In this document: one piece after another, positions 4,606 to 39,315 of the stretch
How the letters are laid out: the number at the start of each line of letters is the position of its first letter
Numbering within the stretch: the first letter of the stretch is position 1
Assembly (NCBI GenBank): GCA_001773775.1
Contig: MEXR01000032.1
Location: 7,266 to 71,265, forward strand
DNA from: Candidatus Amesbacteria bacterium RIFOXYB1_FULL_44_23
GTDB taxonomy: Bacteria; Patescibacteriota; Microgenomatia; CAZETR01; Amesbacteraceae
Direction of reading: 5' to 3'
DNA length: 64,000 nt
Position numbers and translations under genes: made by a program
The notes under the pieces: generated by a model
Seen by the model: only the letters and a program-made list of their open reading frames with translations
Databases searched by the model: none
What the model was told of the DNA's origin: nothing

Positions 4606-5073
4606 TCAAACTGCTAGGGCTGGGGAGGGGGTAGTTTGTTCGGGGTGATCGGGTTGGGGCGGATCGGCAACTGCTTTTTGTGTGACCGGAAGTTCTTTTT
4701 TGATGCGGTTGGCCACTTCTTCAATGCTGAACGGAACAGCTCCCGTTTCGGAAGCTCGGTCTGGGCAATCGATAAATTTCCAGACTCCGGCTGCGGCACA
4801 GTACAGGGTGTCTTTTGAACCTTTTGATCTAAGATACGGACAAACTCTGATACAGGGACGTTCGTCAATTAAAACATCGGGATCGGCCTCAATAACCGGA
4901 ATTTGCGGAAATATAGGACAACTGGCTATTCTGAACAGACCGATCGCCCTCATAGCATCTGCGTTGCTGGTTTGAAGAGTTTTAAGGTAGGCTTCGGTAA
5001 TTTGGGCGGGTGGGAATTGGGCAATCATCTTTAATTCAAGATGCAAGTTGCGAAGTTGCTCTTCTGAGGCCAT
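4606..5073 (-). CDS. Hypothetical protein, Cys-containing
   Basis: 155-aa ORF co-directional with and immediately downstream of the 5107..6168 gene; no recognisable motif. Confidence 0.4.
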   Translation of the reverse strand: MASEEQLRNLHLELKMIAQFPPAQITEAYLKTLQTSNADAMRAIGLFRIASCPIFPQIPVIEADPDVLIDERPCIRVCPYLRSKGSKDTLYCAAAGVWKFIDCPDRASETGAVPFSIEEVANRIKKELPVTQKAVADPPQPDHPEQTTPSPALAV

Positions 5074-5106: not shown

Positions 5107-6168
5107 TCAATTGGGTTGCATTTGCAGCTGAGACCACCAGTTGGAGAGCCAAGCGAAGGCGGTGATTTCGGTAAGGGAAGACTGGGTGAATGTTTCCGTA
5201 AAGGTGACGGCGGGTGGAGCGCTGATGGTTTTTTCGACGTGGGGGCCGAAAGATTTACCACAGTGGGGACACGGGTCGTGGCCAAAAGTGAGAACGGTAC
5301 CAATTTCCCGGCAACAAAGCGGACATCCTATGCAAAATACTTCCTGACCGATATGGAAATCGTAGGAGGCGGAAGTGGAAACGTAGACTGAGTTTGATTC
5401 CCCGCATCCGGAACCGGAAAAATCCATTGATTGACCTGAGATACTTACCATCTGGGTTTCGGCCTGAGCCCCAACCCGGTGCGGGGAGACGTCTTTAGCT
5501 AAATCAGCCTGAATGGCGATGGCAACCGGAATCATGTCTTGAGTGAGCTTTTGGCAACGGTTTTTAATTTCTCCGGAGTTGATTTGGCCCCAGACTTCGT
5601 CTGGTAAGTCGATCCAACGTTGAGCCAGTTTGCAAAGGTCTGTTGGGGAAGATGACGTAACGGAAAGAGGGGTCATGGCGGCGTCCTGGTTATGCAGGGG
5701 GGGGAGGTTTTTGGTGTCTGAAATGAGGGCAAATTGGTTAAGTCTGGCTTCGGTTTTTTGGGGGGATTCGTGGCGAAGCGGAATTCCGTAGGCGTCAAAA
5801 GTAACGGCGCCGTTTTGGTTTTTGACAAAATACAAATCGAGCCGGCCTTCAGGAAAATTGCTGGCCGGGCTGACCAGAATTACCAGTCGGTGTCGGTTGT
5901 CAGGGGTGCTTTGAATATGTCTTTCCAGATCCAGGGCAGCCAGAGAAGCATCAAAATCCGGTTTTTTAGTACTCAGGTTTTGGGGCAGACGGTTAAACCA
6001 CCAGATGCGATTCGGATCAATGTCTTTGTTAGTAGAAGCGGCTTCTACATTGAGCGAGGCGACGTCTGAGCTAACTTCTTCAAGAGGGGACGATCGGTAT
6101 AGGGAAACGTCGAGAGCGACGCGGGATTCGTTTGACATAGATTTTCCTGCTCGGGAACAGTGAACCAT
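5107..6168 (-). CDS. Hypothetical protein with C-terminal zinc-ribbon-like Cys cluster (CIGCPLCC...CPHCGK)
   Basis: 353-aa ORF with no recognisable catalytic motif; C-terminal cysteine cluster. Confidence 0.45.
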   Translation of the reverse strand: MVHCSRAGKSMSNESRVALDVSLYRSSPLEEVSSDVASLNVEAASTNKDIDPNRIWWFNRLPQNLSTKKPDFDASLAALDLERHIQSTPDNRHRLVILVSPASNFPEGRLDLYFVKNQNGAVTFDAYGIPLRHESPQKTEARLNQFALISDTKNLPPLHNQDAAMTPLSVTSSSPTDLCKLAQRWIDLPDEVWGQINSGEIKNRCQKLTQDMIPVAIAIQADLAKDVSPHRVGAQAETQMVSISGQSMDFSGSGCGESNSVYVSTSASYDFHIGQEVFCIGCPLCCREIGTVLTFGHDPCPHCGKSFGPHVEKTISAPPAVTFTETFTQSSLTEITAFAWLSNWWSQLQMQPN

Positions 6169-6515
6169 TAGTTTTCTGACTTTACAGTTGCGGCACAGTG
6201 GAGGAATTTCACCTCACTTCCTGAAACATGGTTTGGGGACTATATTTGCGGATTCGGGGTAGAATGTCAAGAAGAAAATGAACGCAGAAAACAGCCGTTA
6301 TTTGCTATGTTGTTGCGGAAGTAAGCTGAAATGTCCGACTTCGGTTCTGATAACCAGCATCTGGAAAGATGACGGACTGTGTACAGCTAACTGTCAAAGA
6401 AAAATCGACCAGGGATGGGTAGGCGAAGTTGAGCCGGTGGAAATACTACCAAACAGTGAAGGGAAGGAAGTGGCGGTGTGTGTTTTTGGAAGAATGTATG
6501 TTTTGGAGTGGAAAA

Positions 6516-28669: not shown

Positions 28670-28769
28670 TTTATGGCGAAAATATCATGGTCGGAGGCAT
28701 TGGCTGATTATTTGGGGGGATGAGACGTCGAGTTACCAATCCTTGGTGGGGAAATTTGGGGTATCGAAG

Positions 28770-28840
28770 CAGGGACGGGAGGAATCGAACCTCCACTAGA
28801 GCTTTTGGAGAGCCCAGGTCTACCATTAACCTACGTCCCT
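28770..28840 (-). tRNA. tRNA-Trp (anticodon CCA)
   Basis: Hand-folded cloverleaf: acceptor AGGGACG/CGTCCCT, D-arm, anticodon stem GGGCT/AGCTC with loop CUCCAAA, T-arm GGAGG-TTCGATT-CCTCC. CCA not encoded. Confidence 0.75.
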
Positions 28841-28881: not shown

Positions 28882-29055
28882 TTACTTGAGTTTGGCGTTT
28901 TCCTTGTGGGTGGTGTGCTTTCGGCACTTCTTACAGAATTTATCCAACTGGATTTTTTCGGGGACGTTAACCTTGTTACGTTCTCCGATATAGTTTTGGG
29001 TTTTGCAGACGCTGCAAACAAAACCAAAGATCTGACGGGCACCTTTTTTGGCCAT
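28882..29055 (-). CDS. rpmG: 50S ribosomal protein L33
   Basis: Hand translation gives MAKKGARQIFGFVCSVCKTQNYIGERNKVNVPEKIQLDKFCKKCRKHTTHKENAKLK (57 aa), the canonical L33 zinc ribbon. It was missed by the ORF track (<60 aa); the track ORFs 28854..29042(-) and 28805..28993(+) are wrong-frame artefacts. Confidence 0.85.
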   Translation of the reverse strand: MAKKGARQIFGFVCSVCKTQNYIGERNKVNVPEKIQLDKFCKKCRKHTTHKENAKLK

Positions 29056-29090: not shown

Positions 29091-29501
29091 CTATTGGGTG
29101 ACTGGCGGAACTGGGGTAGCAGCCGCTGGTTGGGTTGGCATGTTCCAGGCCGGAGAAACTGGAGCCGGAGCACTTGAGAGCGGTGCTTGTGGCATTGTTG
29201 CCGGAGCCATGGGAACTACGGGTTCTGGGGCTACTGGAGCTATGACAACCGGTTCCGGAGCCATTACCGGTGGTGGGGTCACGACAGGGGTCGGACTGAA
29301 AACCGGAGTGGGGGGAACGCTGACTGTGGCTGCTGCCTGGTCAATACTGGCCTGAGCCTGACTGACGTCTGGGGCGACTGAGGCTGCTGTGGTTGCGGTA
29401 GAGTTTTCTACGCCACAACGTTCGCATACCCAAACAGTGCGGCCATCGTTGGTGGTAACAGCTTGACAGTTGACGCAGTTAATTGGTTGTTGAGGATCCA
29501 A
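29091..29501 (-). CDS. Zinc-ribbon (CxxC...CxxC) protein with long Pro/Ala/Val-rich tail, hypothetical
   Basis: N-terminal CVNCQAVTTNDGRTVWVCERCG followed by a PTPVVTPPPVMAPEPVV low-complexity region; immediately upstream of rpmG on the same strand. Confidence 0.45.
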   Translation of the reverse strand: MDPQQPINCVNCQAVTTNDGRTVWVCERCGVENSTATTAASVAPDVSQAQASIDQAAATVSVPPTPVFSPTPVVTPPPVMAPEPVVIAPVAPEPVVPMAPATMPQAPLSSAPAPVSPAWNMPTQPAAATPVPPVTQ

Positions 29502-30827: not shown

Positions 30828-30902
30828 TGGAGCCTGGAGTGAGAATCGGACTCACGACTTCATTCTTACCAAGAATGCGTTCTGCCACTGAACTACCCAG
30901 GC
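30828..30902 (-). tRNA. tRNA-Thr (anticodon GGU), CCA encoded
   Basis: Hand-folded: acceptor GCCTGGG/TCCAGGC, D-arm GTTC-AGTGGCA-GAAC, anticodon stem CATTC/GAATG with loop UUGGUAA, T-arm GTGAG-TCCGATT-CTCAC, 3' CCA. Confidence 0.75.
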
Positions 30903-30958
30903 GACGTAATTATTATATCTGACTAAATGCTGATGTGAAGAGTTAAAGACCCTTTAGA

Positions 30959-31312
30959 CTACTTACTTTCTTTTCGGGTGTCGTAAAGTCGGCGGGTAAG
31001 ATCCTCGCTGGCCAGAATCCACTTGTGATGAGTGGTTTGGTTGACGTATTTTAGTTGAAAGCTTAGATCGAGAAGAGCGGTAATTTTAGCTATGGATAAA
31101 ATGCATTTTTCCAAAGTTTTGGGCACATCTGATTCTGAGAATCGGGTTGAACTTTCGGCAAAGTCTTCCAAAAGTGAAGTACCCAGGTTGCGAATTTGGG
31201 GAATCAAGCCTGAGCTTTCATAGCTGGGGAAACTACCGGTGAGGACAAACAGGTCTTTGGTATATTGACGGAGTTGTTCGTAAAGAACTTGATTTAGAAA
31301 TTTAAAGGACAT
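30959..31312 (-). CDS. Four-helix-bundle protein (TIGR02436-like)
   Basis: FPSYESSGLIPQIRNLGTSLLEDFAES...SESD...LSIAKITALLDL fits the FP..E..GL..Q.RRAA.S...NIAEG pattern of this family. Confidence 0.5.
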   Translation of the reverse strand: MSFKFLNQVLYEQLRQYTKDLFVLTGSFPSYESSGLIPQIRNLGTSLLEDFAESSTRFSESDVPKTLEKCILSIAKITALLDLSFQLKYVNQTTHHKWILASEDLTRRLYDTRKESK

Positions 31313-31332
31313 GATAAATTTATATCACAATT

Positions 31333-32100
31333 TTATCTGAAAGTTAGAAGAGAAGTCTCTAAAAGATCCTTGTGTTTGTCCCAGGCGGATTCGAGTGAGG
31401 TGGCGGTGACAATATACGCCCGGCTATCTTCAATGAGAATGAGTTGGATATTTTTGATGTGAAAGACACCCTGAACAAAAGTGCCGCCAATGATTCTGGC
31501 CTGGGATCCGGCTGTTGTTGTAACCGGCCGATCTTCGGTTGAGCGATAGTTTTGCAAAAGCTTGGGCAGCATCTCTTTGGTGGCGGCTACATAGGTATCC
31601 AAATCTAGACCGGGAACCGATTCTGAGGTGACGTTGATATTGGTGGTGAACTGGTTTTCGCCTTCTTTGTCCGTTTGGTTGTTAAAGAAAAAAACCAGGG
31701 TGCCAAATTGTCCGCTTTCGTCCGTTCGCCAACCTTTGGGGGCATTGATTTTGAAACCAAATTTAGAGTTGGTGTACGCAGTCTGTTCGAGAGAACTTGA
31801 AACTGATTGCTGGGTGGGAGCGGGTTTGGGATCGATAAGGAGTTCGGTTGATGGTTTTTTGGTGTTAACAAAGAAATAAATACCGATTGAAGCCAGGCTG
31901 ACTAGTAAAATAGCGATAAAGCCGGTTAAGAGGTGGTTTTTAGGACGGGGTGGGGCAATGGTGGTAGTGGCCTGAGATAGAGCTTCGTCGATGTCGTGCT
32001 GCTGCCATCCTTGTTGGATCAGGGTTTGGATGATTGATGAGGGCGATATCCCAGACTGGATTTGTTGCCTGATGTAGTCGAGCAGTTGCTGATTTGCCAT
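31333..32100 (-). CDS. Membrane-anchored hypothetical protein (256 aa)
   Basis: Start trimmed to MANQQLL... (ATG 32100..32098), because the longer track ORF (to 32235) runs through tRNA-Tyr. One TM (LLTGFIAILLVSLASIGIYFFV) and an extracytoplasmic domain. Confidence 0.5.
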   Translation of the reverse strand: MANQQLLDYIRQQIQSGISPSSIIQTLIQQGWQQHDIDEALSQATTTIAPPRPKNHLLTGFIAILLVSLASIGIYFFVNTKKPSTELLIDPKPAPTQQSVSSSLEQTAYTNSKFGFKINAPKGWRTDESGQFGTLVFFFNNQTDKEGENQFTTNINVTSESVPGLDLDTYVAATKEMLPKLLQNYRSTEDRPVTTTAGSQARIIGGTFVQGVFHIKNIQLILIEDSRAYIVTATSLESAWDKHKDLLETSLLTFR

Positions 32101-32184
32101 GGTGCCGGGAGCAGGATTCGAACCTACGTAGCCTAAGGCGCCTGATTTACAGTCAGGTGTGATTGACCGCTCCACCATCCCGGC
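32100..32184 (-). tRNA. tRNA-Tyr (anticodon GUA), long variable arm, CCA encoded
   Basis: Hand-folded: acceptor GCCGGGA/TCCCGGC, anticodon stem CCTGA/TCAGG with loop CUGUAAA, long variable arm CGCCTTAGGCTACG, T-arm with GGTTCGAATCC, 3' ACCA. Confidence 0.8.
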
Positions 32185-32274
32185 GATAATTATGATTTTA
32201 ACAAAATTCAGACGCTTCGTGTTGCTGACGGTCAAATCTTTAAGTACTTGAACTCTTGTTACTGACGAAATATA

Positions 32275-33054
32275 TCATTCCCAATCTTCGATTAGGGGTC
32301 GATATTCTCTTTGAATTTCTAAATATGATTTTTTGAGAATGACTTCAAGTTTTATCTGGGGGAATAGATGTCTAAATAAAGCATCTCTTTCTTGTGAATA
32401 TAAATTCATGTAGTTTTTAACTTCGATATAAGTTTTAACTTTAGGCAAATAGAAGTCTGGACGGTAGGTGTGGATTCCTAGATTAAAACGTCTGGGGGCA
32501 TATTGCCATTTAATCCCGACTAAATTGAACGTTCTGGCAAGATTGGCTTCCCATGTACTATAAAAACAAATTTTGGGATCAATATCGATTCTTACTCCAG
32601 ATTTGCCTTTTGAGGCCTTAGGCGACGTGGTTTGATGGCCAATCGTGGTTATGGCACAAAGAGAGCTACAGTATTTTCGTGACTTTGTTAAGTACCTGGC
32701 GACTTTAAATATTTGTTTACAATCAGGGTTTTGGCAGGTCAGGGTGACAAGTGGCAATTTTACTTGTTTAGGAGGTCTGATCCCGGCAAGTTTGAGACAT
32801 TTCGAAATTTTATTTCTGATTATTTCTGGCATGTGTTTTCCCGTGTTGTGAAACTGAGCCGAACATCTTCTTGAACAGAATATTTGCCTAGCGTACGGCT
32901 TTGTCTCAAAAATACTTGAACATTTTGGGTTGGGACAAACCTTGGTAATAGTGGGGCTAGTTAACTTTGTATATTTTCCAGCTAGCCAATTGGCTTTAGT
33001 AATGCGGGATTGTTTGGATCGATACGTAGGGGTTTGGTAGAACTGGGGTGCCAC
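32275..33054 (-). CDS. Zinc-finger + PD-(D/E)xK nuclease-like protein (homing-endonuclease-like), inserted within the tRNA cluster
   Basis: Duplicated C4 fingers (CPNPKCSSIF..C.RRCS and CQNPDCKQIF..CSSLC). The C-terminal TYRPDFYLP...YIEVK fits the PD...(D/E)xK nuclease core. AT-rich. Confidence 0.5.
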   Translation of the reverse strand: MAPQFYQTPTYRSKQSRITKANWLAGKYTKLTSPTITKVCPNPKCSSIFETKPYARQIFCSRRCSAQFHNTGKHMPEIIRNKISKCLKLAGIRPPKQVKLPLVTLTCQNPDCKQIFKVARYLTKSRKYCSSLCAITTIGHQTTSPKASKGKSGVRIDIDPKICFYSTWEANLARTFNLVGIKWQYAPRRFNLGIHTYRPDFYLPKVKTYIEVKNYMNLYSQERDALFRHLFPQIKLEVILKKSYLEIQREYRPLIEDWE

Positions 33055-33103
33055 ACTTTAATTATTCCGAAATTTACCCGAATGTCAAGAGAAATAGATT
33101 ATG

Positions 33104-33174
33104 AGCCGATGGGCAGAATTGAACTGCCGTCTGAGGGTTACAAAACCTCGGCTCTGCCATTGAGCTACATCGGC
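33104..33174 (-). tRNA. tRNA-Thr (anticodon UGU), tentative
   Basis: Hand-folded: acceptor GCCGATG/CATCGGC, D-arm GCTC-AATGGCA-GAGC, anticodon loop UUUGUAA, T-arm GGCAG-TTCAATT-CTGCC. There is a U-C mismatch at the 31-39 closing pair, so the anticodon call needs tRNAscan. Confidence 0.6.
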
Positions 33175-38547: not shown

Positions 38548-39315
38548 TTTGAGACGTTTGCCTTCAGGATTTATAGTCCACAAGCCAGGCCATGGCCAAT
38601 AGGCTCTGAATTTGGAATCAAGAAGGGGAGATTTTGCGGCCAGCTGGGATTTCAATTCAGGATACGGGACAAAGCCGTCCTGGCGGGTAAGCTTTCTGGT
38701 GTAGGTAGATTGGGAATCGTCCTGGGCAACAGGGTGAATGGACTTTGGAAGTGAGTTGTTTTGAAGCAAATCAAGAAACAAATCGGTACCTTTTTCAAAT
38801 AATCTCTTTCCCAATATTGGGGGAGTGTCGGTGTCTAAAATGACGTCTTTTTTTTGGGCGACAACCGGTCCGTGATCCATCTGAGCATCCAGTTGAATAA
38901 CGGTTACACCGGTATCTTTTTCTCCATCAAGTATTTGCTGTTGCAGGGGTGAAGGACCCCTATATTTAGGAAGCATTGATGGGTGAATATTGTATATTTG
39001 ATTATTAAATATACTCAGTATGTTTTGCGGAATAATCTGGCCGAATGCCGCCACCAGACCCAGTGTTTGGTTGTGGGAATCAATAAAATTTTCAGGTAGT
39101 TTTTTAAGCGATTCTATAACATGGATTTGATACTTTTGGGCCAGTACTTTTACGGGATTGGGGGTAAGTTTTAGATGGCGACCTACCGGTTTGTCAGGCG
39201 AGGTGACTACGTAACGCAGCTGAATGTCGTTGGAGGTGAGTTGGTGGTGGATTAATTTGTCTAAAACCGGAAGGGAGTACTCAGAGGAGCCAAAAAAAAT
39301 GAGATTTATGCTCAT
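38515..39315 (-). CDS. fmt: Methionyl-tRNA formyltransferase
   Basis: N-terminal IFFGSSEYSLPVL and HPSMLPKYRGPSPLQQQIL (the HPS/SLLP...RG formyltransferase motif); downstream of def. Confidence 0.8.
   Translation of the reverse strand: MSINLIFFGSSEYSLPVLDKLIHHQLTSNDIQLRYVVTSPDKPVGRHLKLTPNPVKVLAQKYQIHVIESLKKLPENFIDSHNQTLGLVAAFGQIIPQNILSIFNNQIYNIHPSMLPKYRGPSPLQQQILDGEKDTGVTVIQLDAQMDHGPVVAQKKDVILDTDTPPILGKRLFEKGTDLFLDLLQNNSLPKSIHPVAQDDSQSTYTRKLTRQDGFVPYPELKSQLAAKSPLLDSKFRAYWPWPGLWTINPEGKRLKLLSLTPLKFS

Follow-up and report, generated by a model that had tools for sequence, protein, structure and literature searches.

Most known free-standing homing endonucleases come from phages, organelles, introns and inteins. 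An enzyme of this kind that lives among tRNA genes has been described in phage T4, where SegB, a free-standing GIY-YIG homing endonuclease, is located in the tRNA gene cluster and its site includes the conserved TpsiC stem-loop (PMC2330249). Another reference point is the homing endonuclease I-Ssp6803I, whose family is PDDEXK_5 (PMC3424549). In this study we analysed 64,000 nucleotides of the genome of Candidatus Amesbacteria bacterium RIFOXYB1_FULL_44_23, a patescibacterium from groundwater metagenomes (contig MEXR01000032.1, positions 7,266 to 71,265; this whole stretch is called the window), in which the minus-strand genes for tRNA-Thr(UGU), tRNA-Tyr(GUA) and tRNA-Thr(GGU) are separated by three protein genes (Table 1). 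The first of these, placed between tRNA-Thr(UGU) and tRNA-Tyr and designated NUC, is probably a free-standing homing-endonuclease gene, active now or until recently, which occupies a fixed slot between the two tRNA genes. In relatives, the slot next to tRNA-Thr(UGU) recurs across Patescibacteria in this and other states, which suggests that mobile nuclease genes have a hot spot in a cellular tRNA operon. The searchable literature yielded no account of this slot; the work on the candidate phyla radiation (CPR) that was found concerns only insertions with LAGLIDADG enzymes in rRNA genes (PMC11270868).

The protein encoded by NUC begins with a conserved N-terminal helix. Next come two C4 zinc fingers, separated by a NUMOD3-like motif, and then a basic linker (TTSPKASKGK) that leads to a PD-(D/E)xK domain. 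In an alignment of 22 homologues, eight cysteines and the residues E169, D200, E211 and K213 were invariant, and the latter four, together with the fold matches given below, place the protein in the PD-(D/E)xK superfamily. This agrees with an earlier sequence-only reading of this DNA, in which the AT-rich open reading frame (ORF), the duplicated C4 fingers and the catalytic core had already been recognised (GC content 38.8%, and 35.8% at third codon positions, GC3, compared with 45.6% for the window). The same reading had directed attention to the Vsr/DUF559 and HNH families, but no profile match to either was obtained and this identity of the nuclease domain was dropped; nor did Pfam return a match to PDDEXK_5 (PF11645).

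Profile searches matched NUC to PHROG 9019, “Holliday junction resolvase” (3e-16). A profile of the NUC family, compared with the PDB, retrieved chains of T7 endonuclease I (E 7e-5) as well as Bax1. The AlphaFold2 model has a predicted local distance difference test score >90 across the nuclease domain; Foldseek ranked T7 endonuclease I first, and the fold matches comprised T7 endonuclease I, Bax1, TnsA, Vsr and I-Bth0305I. Against Pfam Phage_endo_I (PF05367) NUC scores 16.8 bits (E 0.005), below the gathering threshold of 29.1, which some of its orthologues and superfamily members do pass. On these scores the protein is classed as a relative of Phage_endo_I rather than a curated member. At least 148 full-length homologues were identified (256-263 aa, 43-56% identical), the named ones all from Patescibacteria. 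In the wider superfamily (10,238 hits) the nuclease domain is paired with NUMOD3 and helix-turn-helix (HTH) modules, and one member is located in a DnaE intein. In P0173, a 1403-aa DnaE (PolIII alpha) with an intein, the profile of the NUC nuclease domain matches the endonuclease insert of the intein at residues about 832-942 (1e-26); a catalytic domain of the NUC type therefore also serves in an intein.

The genomic position of NUC was analysed in samples that differed in their anchor. Scanning of GTDB species genomes for NUC itself gave 67 loci from Microgenomates, Parcubacteria, Berkelbacteria and others. A tRNA-Thr(UGU) gene lies 0-78 nt upstream of NUC, on the same strand, in 64 of the 65 loci with upstream DNA present (57 recognised by ARAGORN and 7 more by Rfam; the exception is locus L044, loci being given here by L numbers). 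NUC keeps its place behind this tRNA even where the rest of the neighbourhood has been rearranged. The genes further upstream are rpmE-prfA-rpsB-tsf and a small membrane protein gene in Parcubacteria, and def-fmt-L28-M50 in Microgenomates. Disrupted copies of NUC were present in 5/67 loci (L064-L069). The adjacency to a tRNA, together with the conservation and the Mantel correlation presented below, pointed to an ancient conserved core gene, an interpretation that was dropped as the main one after sampling anchored on the tRNA and on tsf. The NUC-anchored sample proved misleading because only NUC-bearing loci could enter it. It should be borne in mind that a selfish element can pass for a core gene when sampling is anchored on the gene itself.

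The tRNA-anchored sample comprised 80 metagenome loci with a tRNA-Thr(UGU) of the Microgenomates type (about 14 unrelated tRNA arrays were set aside), and it revealed that the Thr(UGU)-Tyr slot exists in many states. Intact NUC was found as about 12 distinct alleles (e.g. L084, L085, L087, L089, L096, L097, L100, L101, L103, L105, L107 and L128). Decayed copies were frameshifted (L124, L142), carried internal deletions (L074, L094) or retained the nuclease domain only (L111, L056). Chimeric occupants join the N-terminal zinc-finger module of NUC (hidden Markov model E 1e-14 to 1e-29) to an HNH domain (PF01844; L076, L098, L114) or, in L130, to the C-terminus of the HTH type. This HTH type is a 219-aa protein (L082, L104, L125, L148) with an HTH like those of phage HNH and homing endonucleases; for its C-terminal domain, Pfam, the PDB and PHROGs gave nothing beyond the HTH. 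Other loci contain a 260-aa protein composed of HTH and LAGLIDADG_3 (1.1e-9; L073, L090, L121, L131, L151) or a 135-aa protein of the PDDEXK_5 family (1e-23; L075, L091).

Two loci, L086 and L088, retain only the promoter of the slot. In addition, the slot can be empty, with the Thr and Tyr genes 6-39 nt apart and their junction unbroken (L092/93, L102, L117, L138, L141). One of the empty loci, L117, belongs to a fairly close relative of the window (M50 63% identical, with the same zinc-ribbon gene and L33). Identical tRNA-Thr genes and near-identical 5' ends of tRNA-Tyr were observed in three states, i.e. empty (24-nt spacer), with NUC (833 nt) and with the PDDEXK_5 gene (433 nt). NUC is thus polymorphic in presence and absence at one fixed site among closely related genomes, and degenerate copies as well as replacements by other endonuclease families occur at that same site, both of which are hallmarks of homing endonucleases. 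We also noted that L088 and L148 agree in all of the first 60 nt behind tRNA-Thr, a stretch that takes in the promoter, with gaps to tRNA-Tyr of 361 and 695 nt, respectively; L088 looks like a snapshot of decay by deletion, in which most of the HTH-type gene has been lost.

A third sample, anchored on tsf, consisted of six Parcubacteria relatives of the NUC-bearing locus L043 (tsf 76-85% identical). None of the six has NUC, though rpsB, tsf, the membrane protein gene and tRNA-Thr(UGU) are present in all of them; the next genes after the tRNA are PaaX-like, GNAT or unclassified. A search with tsf yielded at least 3906 clusters compared with at least 148 for NUC, a difference that is only suggestive, since both counts are lower bounds.

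The composition of NUC also sets it apart from its surroundings. In 88% of 57 loci its GC3 is lower than in the conserved genes nearby (on average by 11.8 points); it ranges from 0.17 to 0.59, compared with 0.16-0.84 for host GC3 (slope 0.46); for other gene families in these loci the deviation never exceeded 6.4 points. The low GC3 might result from horizontal spread or, alternatively, from selection for AT-rich synonymous sites (low expression or an unstructured leaderless mRNA), two explanations which these data do not separate. Intact copies are under purifying selection, with a ratio of nonsynonymous to synonymous substitution rates (dN/dS) of 0.06-0.16 in the closest pairs. The window copy is 48-54% identical to every other Microgenomates NUC, irrespective of host relatedness (M50 34-65%), and merely 49% identical to that of the closest host, L011 (M50 65%, PilB 72%). 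The sequence-only reading would have given way had the inserted genes turned out to be ancient core genes of normal composition. NUC is instead compositionally aberrant and patchily distributed, though NUC-anchored sampling alone had seemed to show such a core gene.

Several results weigh against the proposal of a homing endonuclease. In the same 38 genomes the mean identity of NUC (55.7%) exceeds that of EF-Ts (tsf, 48.4%) and S2 (rpsB, 41.5%), and Mantel tests (p <0.0005) link its identities to those of rpsB (r 0.72) and tsf (r 0.65). A neighbour-joining tree of NUC shares 11/35 splits with the marker tree (control 18/35, random 0.2). Because of this conservation and moderate tracking of host markers, much of the history of NUC appears vertical, which leaves room for a useful host function or partial domestication. 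Moreover, no relative of the NUC orthologous group was found on IMG/VR viral contigs; a phage origin of the group was dropped on this ground, these contigs having pointed to no vector. The tRNA-Thr sequences of empty and occupied alleles are the same, so that no target site could be deduced, and a sequence difference in this tRNA was dropped as a marker of target or immunity. Some apparent NUC pseudogenes may reflect misassembly of metagenome-assembled genomes, several of the metagenome loci repeat one allele from different samples, and prevalence was estimated from about 60 loci plus 6.

These results have to be read together with the possibility that NUC belongs to the host and is inherited vertically, e.g. 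as a domesticated Holliday-junction or branched-DNA resolvase, tied to the transcription unit of tRNA-Thr(UGU) and often lost in streamlined genomes. Such a role would fit the high conservation and dN/dS of about 0.1, the correlated distances and tree splits shared far above chance, the likeness in sequence and fold to the resolvase T7 endonuclease I, the PHROG 9019 match and the conserved translation-gene neighbourhood in Parcubacteria. We nevertheless consider it unlikely, given that NUC is absent from 6/6 close Parcubacteria relatives and from many Microgenomates with the same tRNA, and that the LAGLIDADG, PDDEXK_5 and HNH-chimera occupants of the same slot are not resolvases. The GC3 anomaly and the lack of host tracking by the window copy also speak against it, as do the zinc fingers and NUMOD3, which are sequence-reading modules typical of site-specific homing enzymes.

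A further feature shared by the occupants is the slot promoter, whose -10 element ends 6 nt before the GTG start of NUC in the window, so that the message is predicted to be leaderless or near-leaderless. Across the phylum the -10 (often TGnTATAAT) ends 6-9 nt before the NUC start codon. In Microgenomates the promoter follows the motif TTGACW-TCG..-N-TTYGG-..-TAnnnT, for which a regular expression with flexible spacing gave 25 matches in 2.48 Mb of fetched DNA, 25/25 of them in the slot (the window's own copy, with AATAAT as -10, is missed by this search). The promoter precedes NUC, the LAGLIDADG protein, the HNH chimeras, the HTH type and a remnant. Since one promoter stands before unrelated occupants, ORFs have been exchanged behind a common promoter/operator. 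The direct repeat TCG..TTYGG in its spacer may be an operator. By eye, the spacer repeat of HTH-type occupants has the reverse-complement form CCCGAA..CCCRAA.

Leaderless initiation looks common in the genome of the window, where in about 14 of the 63 predicted genes a strong -10-like hexamer ends 5-9 nt from the start codon (e.g. at 39315(-), 40140(-), 47934(+), 54676(+), 27968(-) and 14270(+)) and only 14/63 have a sequence resembling a Shine-Dalgarno (SD) element; NUC is therefore no exception in this respect. About 12 Parcubacteria loci have 0-12 nt between the tRNA and the NUC ATG, too little space for a promoter of its own, which implies that NUC is co-transcribed with the tRNA. NUC-positive relatives retain TGTGTAGAAT before tRNA-Tyr, comparable to the extended -10-like sequence of the window (Table 1).

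Taken together, the fixed site, the presence/absence polymorphism, the decayed copies, the several nuclease families, the chimeras, the composition and the purifying selection point to a cycle of invasion, decay, loss and replacement. We propose that the N-terminal module of NUC (two C4 fingers, NUMOD3-like motif and basic linker) would bind a specific DNA sequence in genomes without NUC, either in the Thr(UGU)-Tyr junction or close to it, and that the C-terminal, Mg2+-dependent PD-(D/E)xK domain, similar to T7 endonuclease I and Bax1, would cut the bound DNA. Recombinational repair templated by the gene-bearing copy would then place NUC, possibly with flanking DNA, into the slot. Once fixed, the gene would decay and be lost, leaving the slot open to re-invasion by the same or another nuclease family. 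Expression would be driven by the slot-specific promoter, with its -10 about 6 nt before the start codon, and would give a leaderless message. DNA cleavage by NUC, the identity of its target site and gene conversion are what we infer from the sequences.

Alternatively, since content varies both in the slot and in the neighbouring interval between tRNA-Tyr and tRNA-Thr(GGU), the flank of tRNA-Thr might be a hot spot of variation in general, open to accessory or defence genes, and NUC a non-homing, restriction-like or anti-phage nuclease. PADLOC returned no significant defence-family match for NUC, only a faint one to HEAT_CxxC_PD-DEXK (E 0.004), and its status as a known anti-phage defence gene was dropped. 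NUC has no partner gene of the methylase or immunity type; each slot holds a single occupant behind the common promoter, and all identifiable alternative occupants come from homing-endonuclease families or bear modules of the homing-endonuclease type. We regard a defence hot spot as highly improbable. Since tRNA genes are, as generally known, classic integration sites, an integrase-mediated island or transposon carrying all three genes was also considered. It is effectively refuted: the three genes occur independently of each other in relatives, no integrase or transposase is present among the window ORFs, and we found neither att-like direct repeats of tRNA 3' ends nor terminal inverted repeats, but only short chance repeats. 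No paralogues of the three genes occur elsewhere in the window.

The sequence-only reading had compared the cluster with the thrU-tyrU-glyT-thrT-tufB operon, pointing out that glyT and tuf are missing. The three tRNAs were confirmed by both ARAGORN and Rfam (60-64 bits), and ARAGORN, ORF and profile scans found neither tRNA-Gly nor tuf in the region. The order Thr(UGU)-Tyr-Thr(GGU) is indeed kept, but tRNA-Gly and tuf are absent from compact relatives as well, whose cluster runs on into rpmG and tRNA-Trp; the lineage norm is Thr-Tyr-Thr-rpmG-Trp and the absence is no local loss. In the window, rpmG and tRNA-Trp, which continue the cluster directly in relatives, are set apart from it by pilB(+) and a zinc-ribbon gene; the latter adjoins rpmG also in L011, L088, L117 and L148. 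In L138 and L141 the cluster is uninterrupted: tRNA-Thr(UGU) is followed after 6-7 nt by tRNA-Tyr, directly adjacent tRNA-Thr(GGU), L33 and tRNA-Trp. Since such relatives exist, the three intervening genes of the window are true insertions. Elsewhere in the window an AdoCbl-II (cobalamin) riboswitch scores above its gathering score (39.5 compared with 36.5 bits).

Table 1. Positions of the described features within the window, listed in the direction of the minus strand
Feature	Position	Strand	Remarks
tRNA-Thr(UGU)	33103-33174	-	ARAGORN + Rfam, 64.1 bits; no encoded CCA; fixed 5' boundary of the nuclease slot
Slot promoter TTGACA-16-AATAAT	33061-33088	-	TTCGG..TTCGG in spacer; promoter scan 11/12
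NUC	32275-33054	-	259 aa, GTG start; putative free-standing homing endonuclease
Extended -10-like TGTTAAAAT	32195-32203	-	Candidate read by eye; 10 nt upstream of tRNA-Tyr
tRNA-Tyr(GUA)	32100-32184	-	ARAGORN + Rfam; encoded CCA; 3' boundary of the nuclease slot
Membrane-anchored PsbP/DcrB-like protein	31333-32100	-	255 aa
Four-helix-bundle protein	30959-31312	-	117 aa; TIGR02436 / PF05635 (“23S rRNA intervening sequence protein” family)
Promoter-like TTCACA-16-TATAAT	30912-30939	-	11/12 matches; ends 9 nt before tRNA-Thr(GGU)
tRNA-Thr(GGU)	30828-30902	-	ARAGORN + Rfam; encoded CCA
Zinc-ribbon gene	29091-29501	-	136 aa; N-terminal zinc ribbon, Pro/Ala/Val-rich tail; GC 58%; between pilB and rpmG
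rpmG (L33)	28882-29055	-	Further along the minus strand, followed by tRNA-Trp
tRNA-Trp	28769-28840	-	After rpmG
AdoCbl-II (cobalamin) riboswitch	6162-6234	-	Abuts start of ORF 5107-6168(-)

The tRNA-Thr(UGU) beside the slot is itself unusual in loci of the Microgenomates type, in which it has a non-canonical elbow. Its D-loop (AGAAGT) is without the usual GG, and its T-loop is TTGCRAA or TGGCAGA, not TTCRAAT. This form was observed in L004, L005, L007, L009, L011, L012, L014-L016 (about 4880-4955) and L072-L151; ARAGORN overlooks 7 of these odd-elbow tRNAs, which score 46-57 bits with Rfam. A link between the elbow and endonuclease targeting, or escape from it, is conceivable by analogy, because T4 SegB recognises the TpsiC stem-loop of tRNA (PMC2330249). 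The oddity is identical in empty and occupied alleles. Another deviating form is present in L010 (3815-3900), where 13 additional nt, GGGGCTTAACGCCATT, are inserted into the variable region of an 86-nt tRNA-Thr(UGU).

The interval between tRNA-Tyr and tRNA-Thr(GGU) (30903-32099 in the window) is a second variable slot, as these two tRNA genes are adjacent in many relatives. In the window it contains the membrane protein and four-helix-bundle genes and in L102 a four-helix-bundle gene alone. Elsewhere there are two uncharacterised ORFs (L011, L089), other gene pairs (L006, L008) or an opposite-strand CapA-like gene (L090, L104, L131); in L086 a CapA-like gene follows tRNA-Tyr, and no tRNA-Thr(GGU) was detected there. 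The four-helix-bundle protein exceeds the curated cutoffs of both families, TIGR02436 (34.1 bits, cutoff 24) and PF05635 (38.5 bits, cutoff 33.8), in accordance with the family proposed for it earlier. Homologues are located between Tyr and Thr(GGU) in L102 (49% identical) and after Thr(GGU) in L005 (30% identical). The sequence TGnTATAAA is visible by eye 6 nt before the ATG of this gene.

The membrane protein has a marginal match to Pfam PsbP (25.6 bits, cutoff 23.5) and one to DcrB below the cutoff (23.5 bits, cutoff 27.2); its homologues carry PF01789/PF08786, and one of them has an unrelated genomic context in L071. Its start abuts the 3' end of tRNA-Tyr, as had been noticed earlier. More exactly, the ATG at 32100 shares its A with the final position of the CCA encoded in the tRNA gene (overlap of one base at 32098-32103(-), CACCATGG). 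Since five homologues begin at the same M-x-N-Q, a call of a 300-aa ORF running through tRNA-Tyr is an over-extension. Neither a promoter nor an SD element is present between tRNA-Tyr and this gene, and it is therefore presumably co-transcribed with the tRNA; on sequence grounds, its message is probably freed by processing of the tRNA 3' end. Owing to the overlapping base, a single transcript can supply a CCA-ended tRNA or an intact AUG, but not the two together, unless cleavage occurs after the discriminator base and CCA is added again. The CCA-adding enzyme is needed anyway, because tRNA-Thr(UGU) has no encoded CCA.

The membrane protein and four-helix-bundle genes are separate, lineage-specific insertions and are not demonstrably selfish. 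The idea that selfish genes had invaded a tRNA operon is thus supported for the nuclease, in view of the empty, decayed and replaced slots, but not for these two genes, the first of which encodes an ordinary PsbP/DcrB-like protein. Nor was the invasion a single local event: the window shows one state of a slot that recurs across the phylum.

A broader interpretation, which we put forward only tentatively, is that, in cellular chromosomes of the Patescibacteria as a whole, free-standing homing endonucleases use the 3' flank of tRNA-Thr(UGU) as a landing pad, for which at least five nuclease architectures compete. These would include a family not yet recognised as homing endonucleases, with a catalytic domain of the T7-endonuclease-I/Bax1 type, and one zinc-finger/NUMOD3 targeting module would have been recombined onto PD-(D/E)xK, HNH and other catalytic domains. 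Breaks made by these enzymes may drive gene turnover in the Tyr-Thr(GGU) interval, and the TTCGG..TTCGG promoter may be an operator for their self-regulation. If this is correct, the NUC slot is a natural system for the life cycle of homing endonucleases in cellular genomes, with intact, decayed and replaced copies and empty slots visible side by side across a huge uncultured bacterial radiation. It would also be a source of compact scaffolds for zinc-finger nucleases, whose target is presumably long. Since homing requires the transfer of DNA between cells, the slot bears on DNA exchange in CPR bacteria.

The classification of homing endonucleases would likewise be affected. F-CphI has reportedly been proposed as a family additional to the six that had been listed. 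The six families of that list (PMC6083498) would be joined by a T7-endonuclease-I-like catalytic type, the catalytic domain of NUC being, by its sequence, outside them as usually defined and within the same broad PD-(D/E)xK superfamily as I-Ssp6803I. The latter and PDDEXK_5 (PF11645) are a recognised homing family with the restriction fold, a member of which fills this very slot in L075 and L091. NUC differs from I-Ssp6803I in being larger, in its zinc-finger and NUMOD3 modules, in having no PF11645 match and in being free-standing, whereas I-Ssp6803I is intron-encoded.

With respect to the catalytic domain, residues about 156-253 of NUC are best matched by T7 endonuclease I (PF05367; PDB 1m0d, 2pfj) and by the nuclease domain of archaeal Bax1 (6p66, 6p4w), which have the same E..PD..ExK catalytic layout. 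Unlike NUC, T7 endonuclease I is a structure-specific junction resolvase without zinc-finger or NUMOD3 modules, and Bax1 differs as a partner of the XPB helicase. I-Bth0305I (EDxHD, Vsr-like; PDB 3r3p) is more distant, since NUC has the canonical E/PD/ExK instead of EDxHD and there is no match at the sequence level. With modular homing endonucleases of the I-TevI type NUC shares a nuclease domain tethered to small DNA-binding modules, NUMOD3-like motifs and domain shuffling; in NUC the DNA-binding module is N-terminal (the reverse order) and the catalytic fold is another one, so this likeness is one of architecture and not a measured homology. In its genomic situation NUC resembles T4 SegB, which is also a free-standing nuclease gene lodged between tRNA genes and lacking in relatives, and whose inheritance takes in flanking tRNA DNA (PMC2330249). 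SegB, however, is a GIY-YIG enzyme of a phage genome, whereas NUC is a zinc-finger PD-(D/E)xK protein, with putative homing, that resides in the cellular chromosomes of Patescibacteria.

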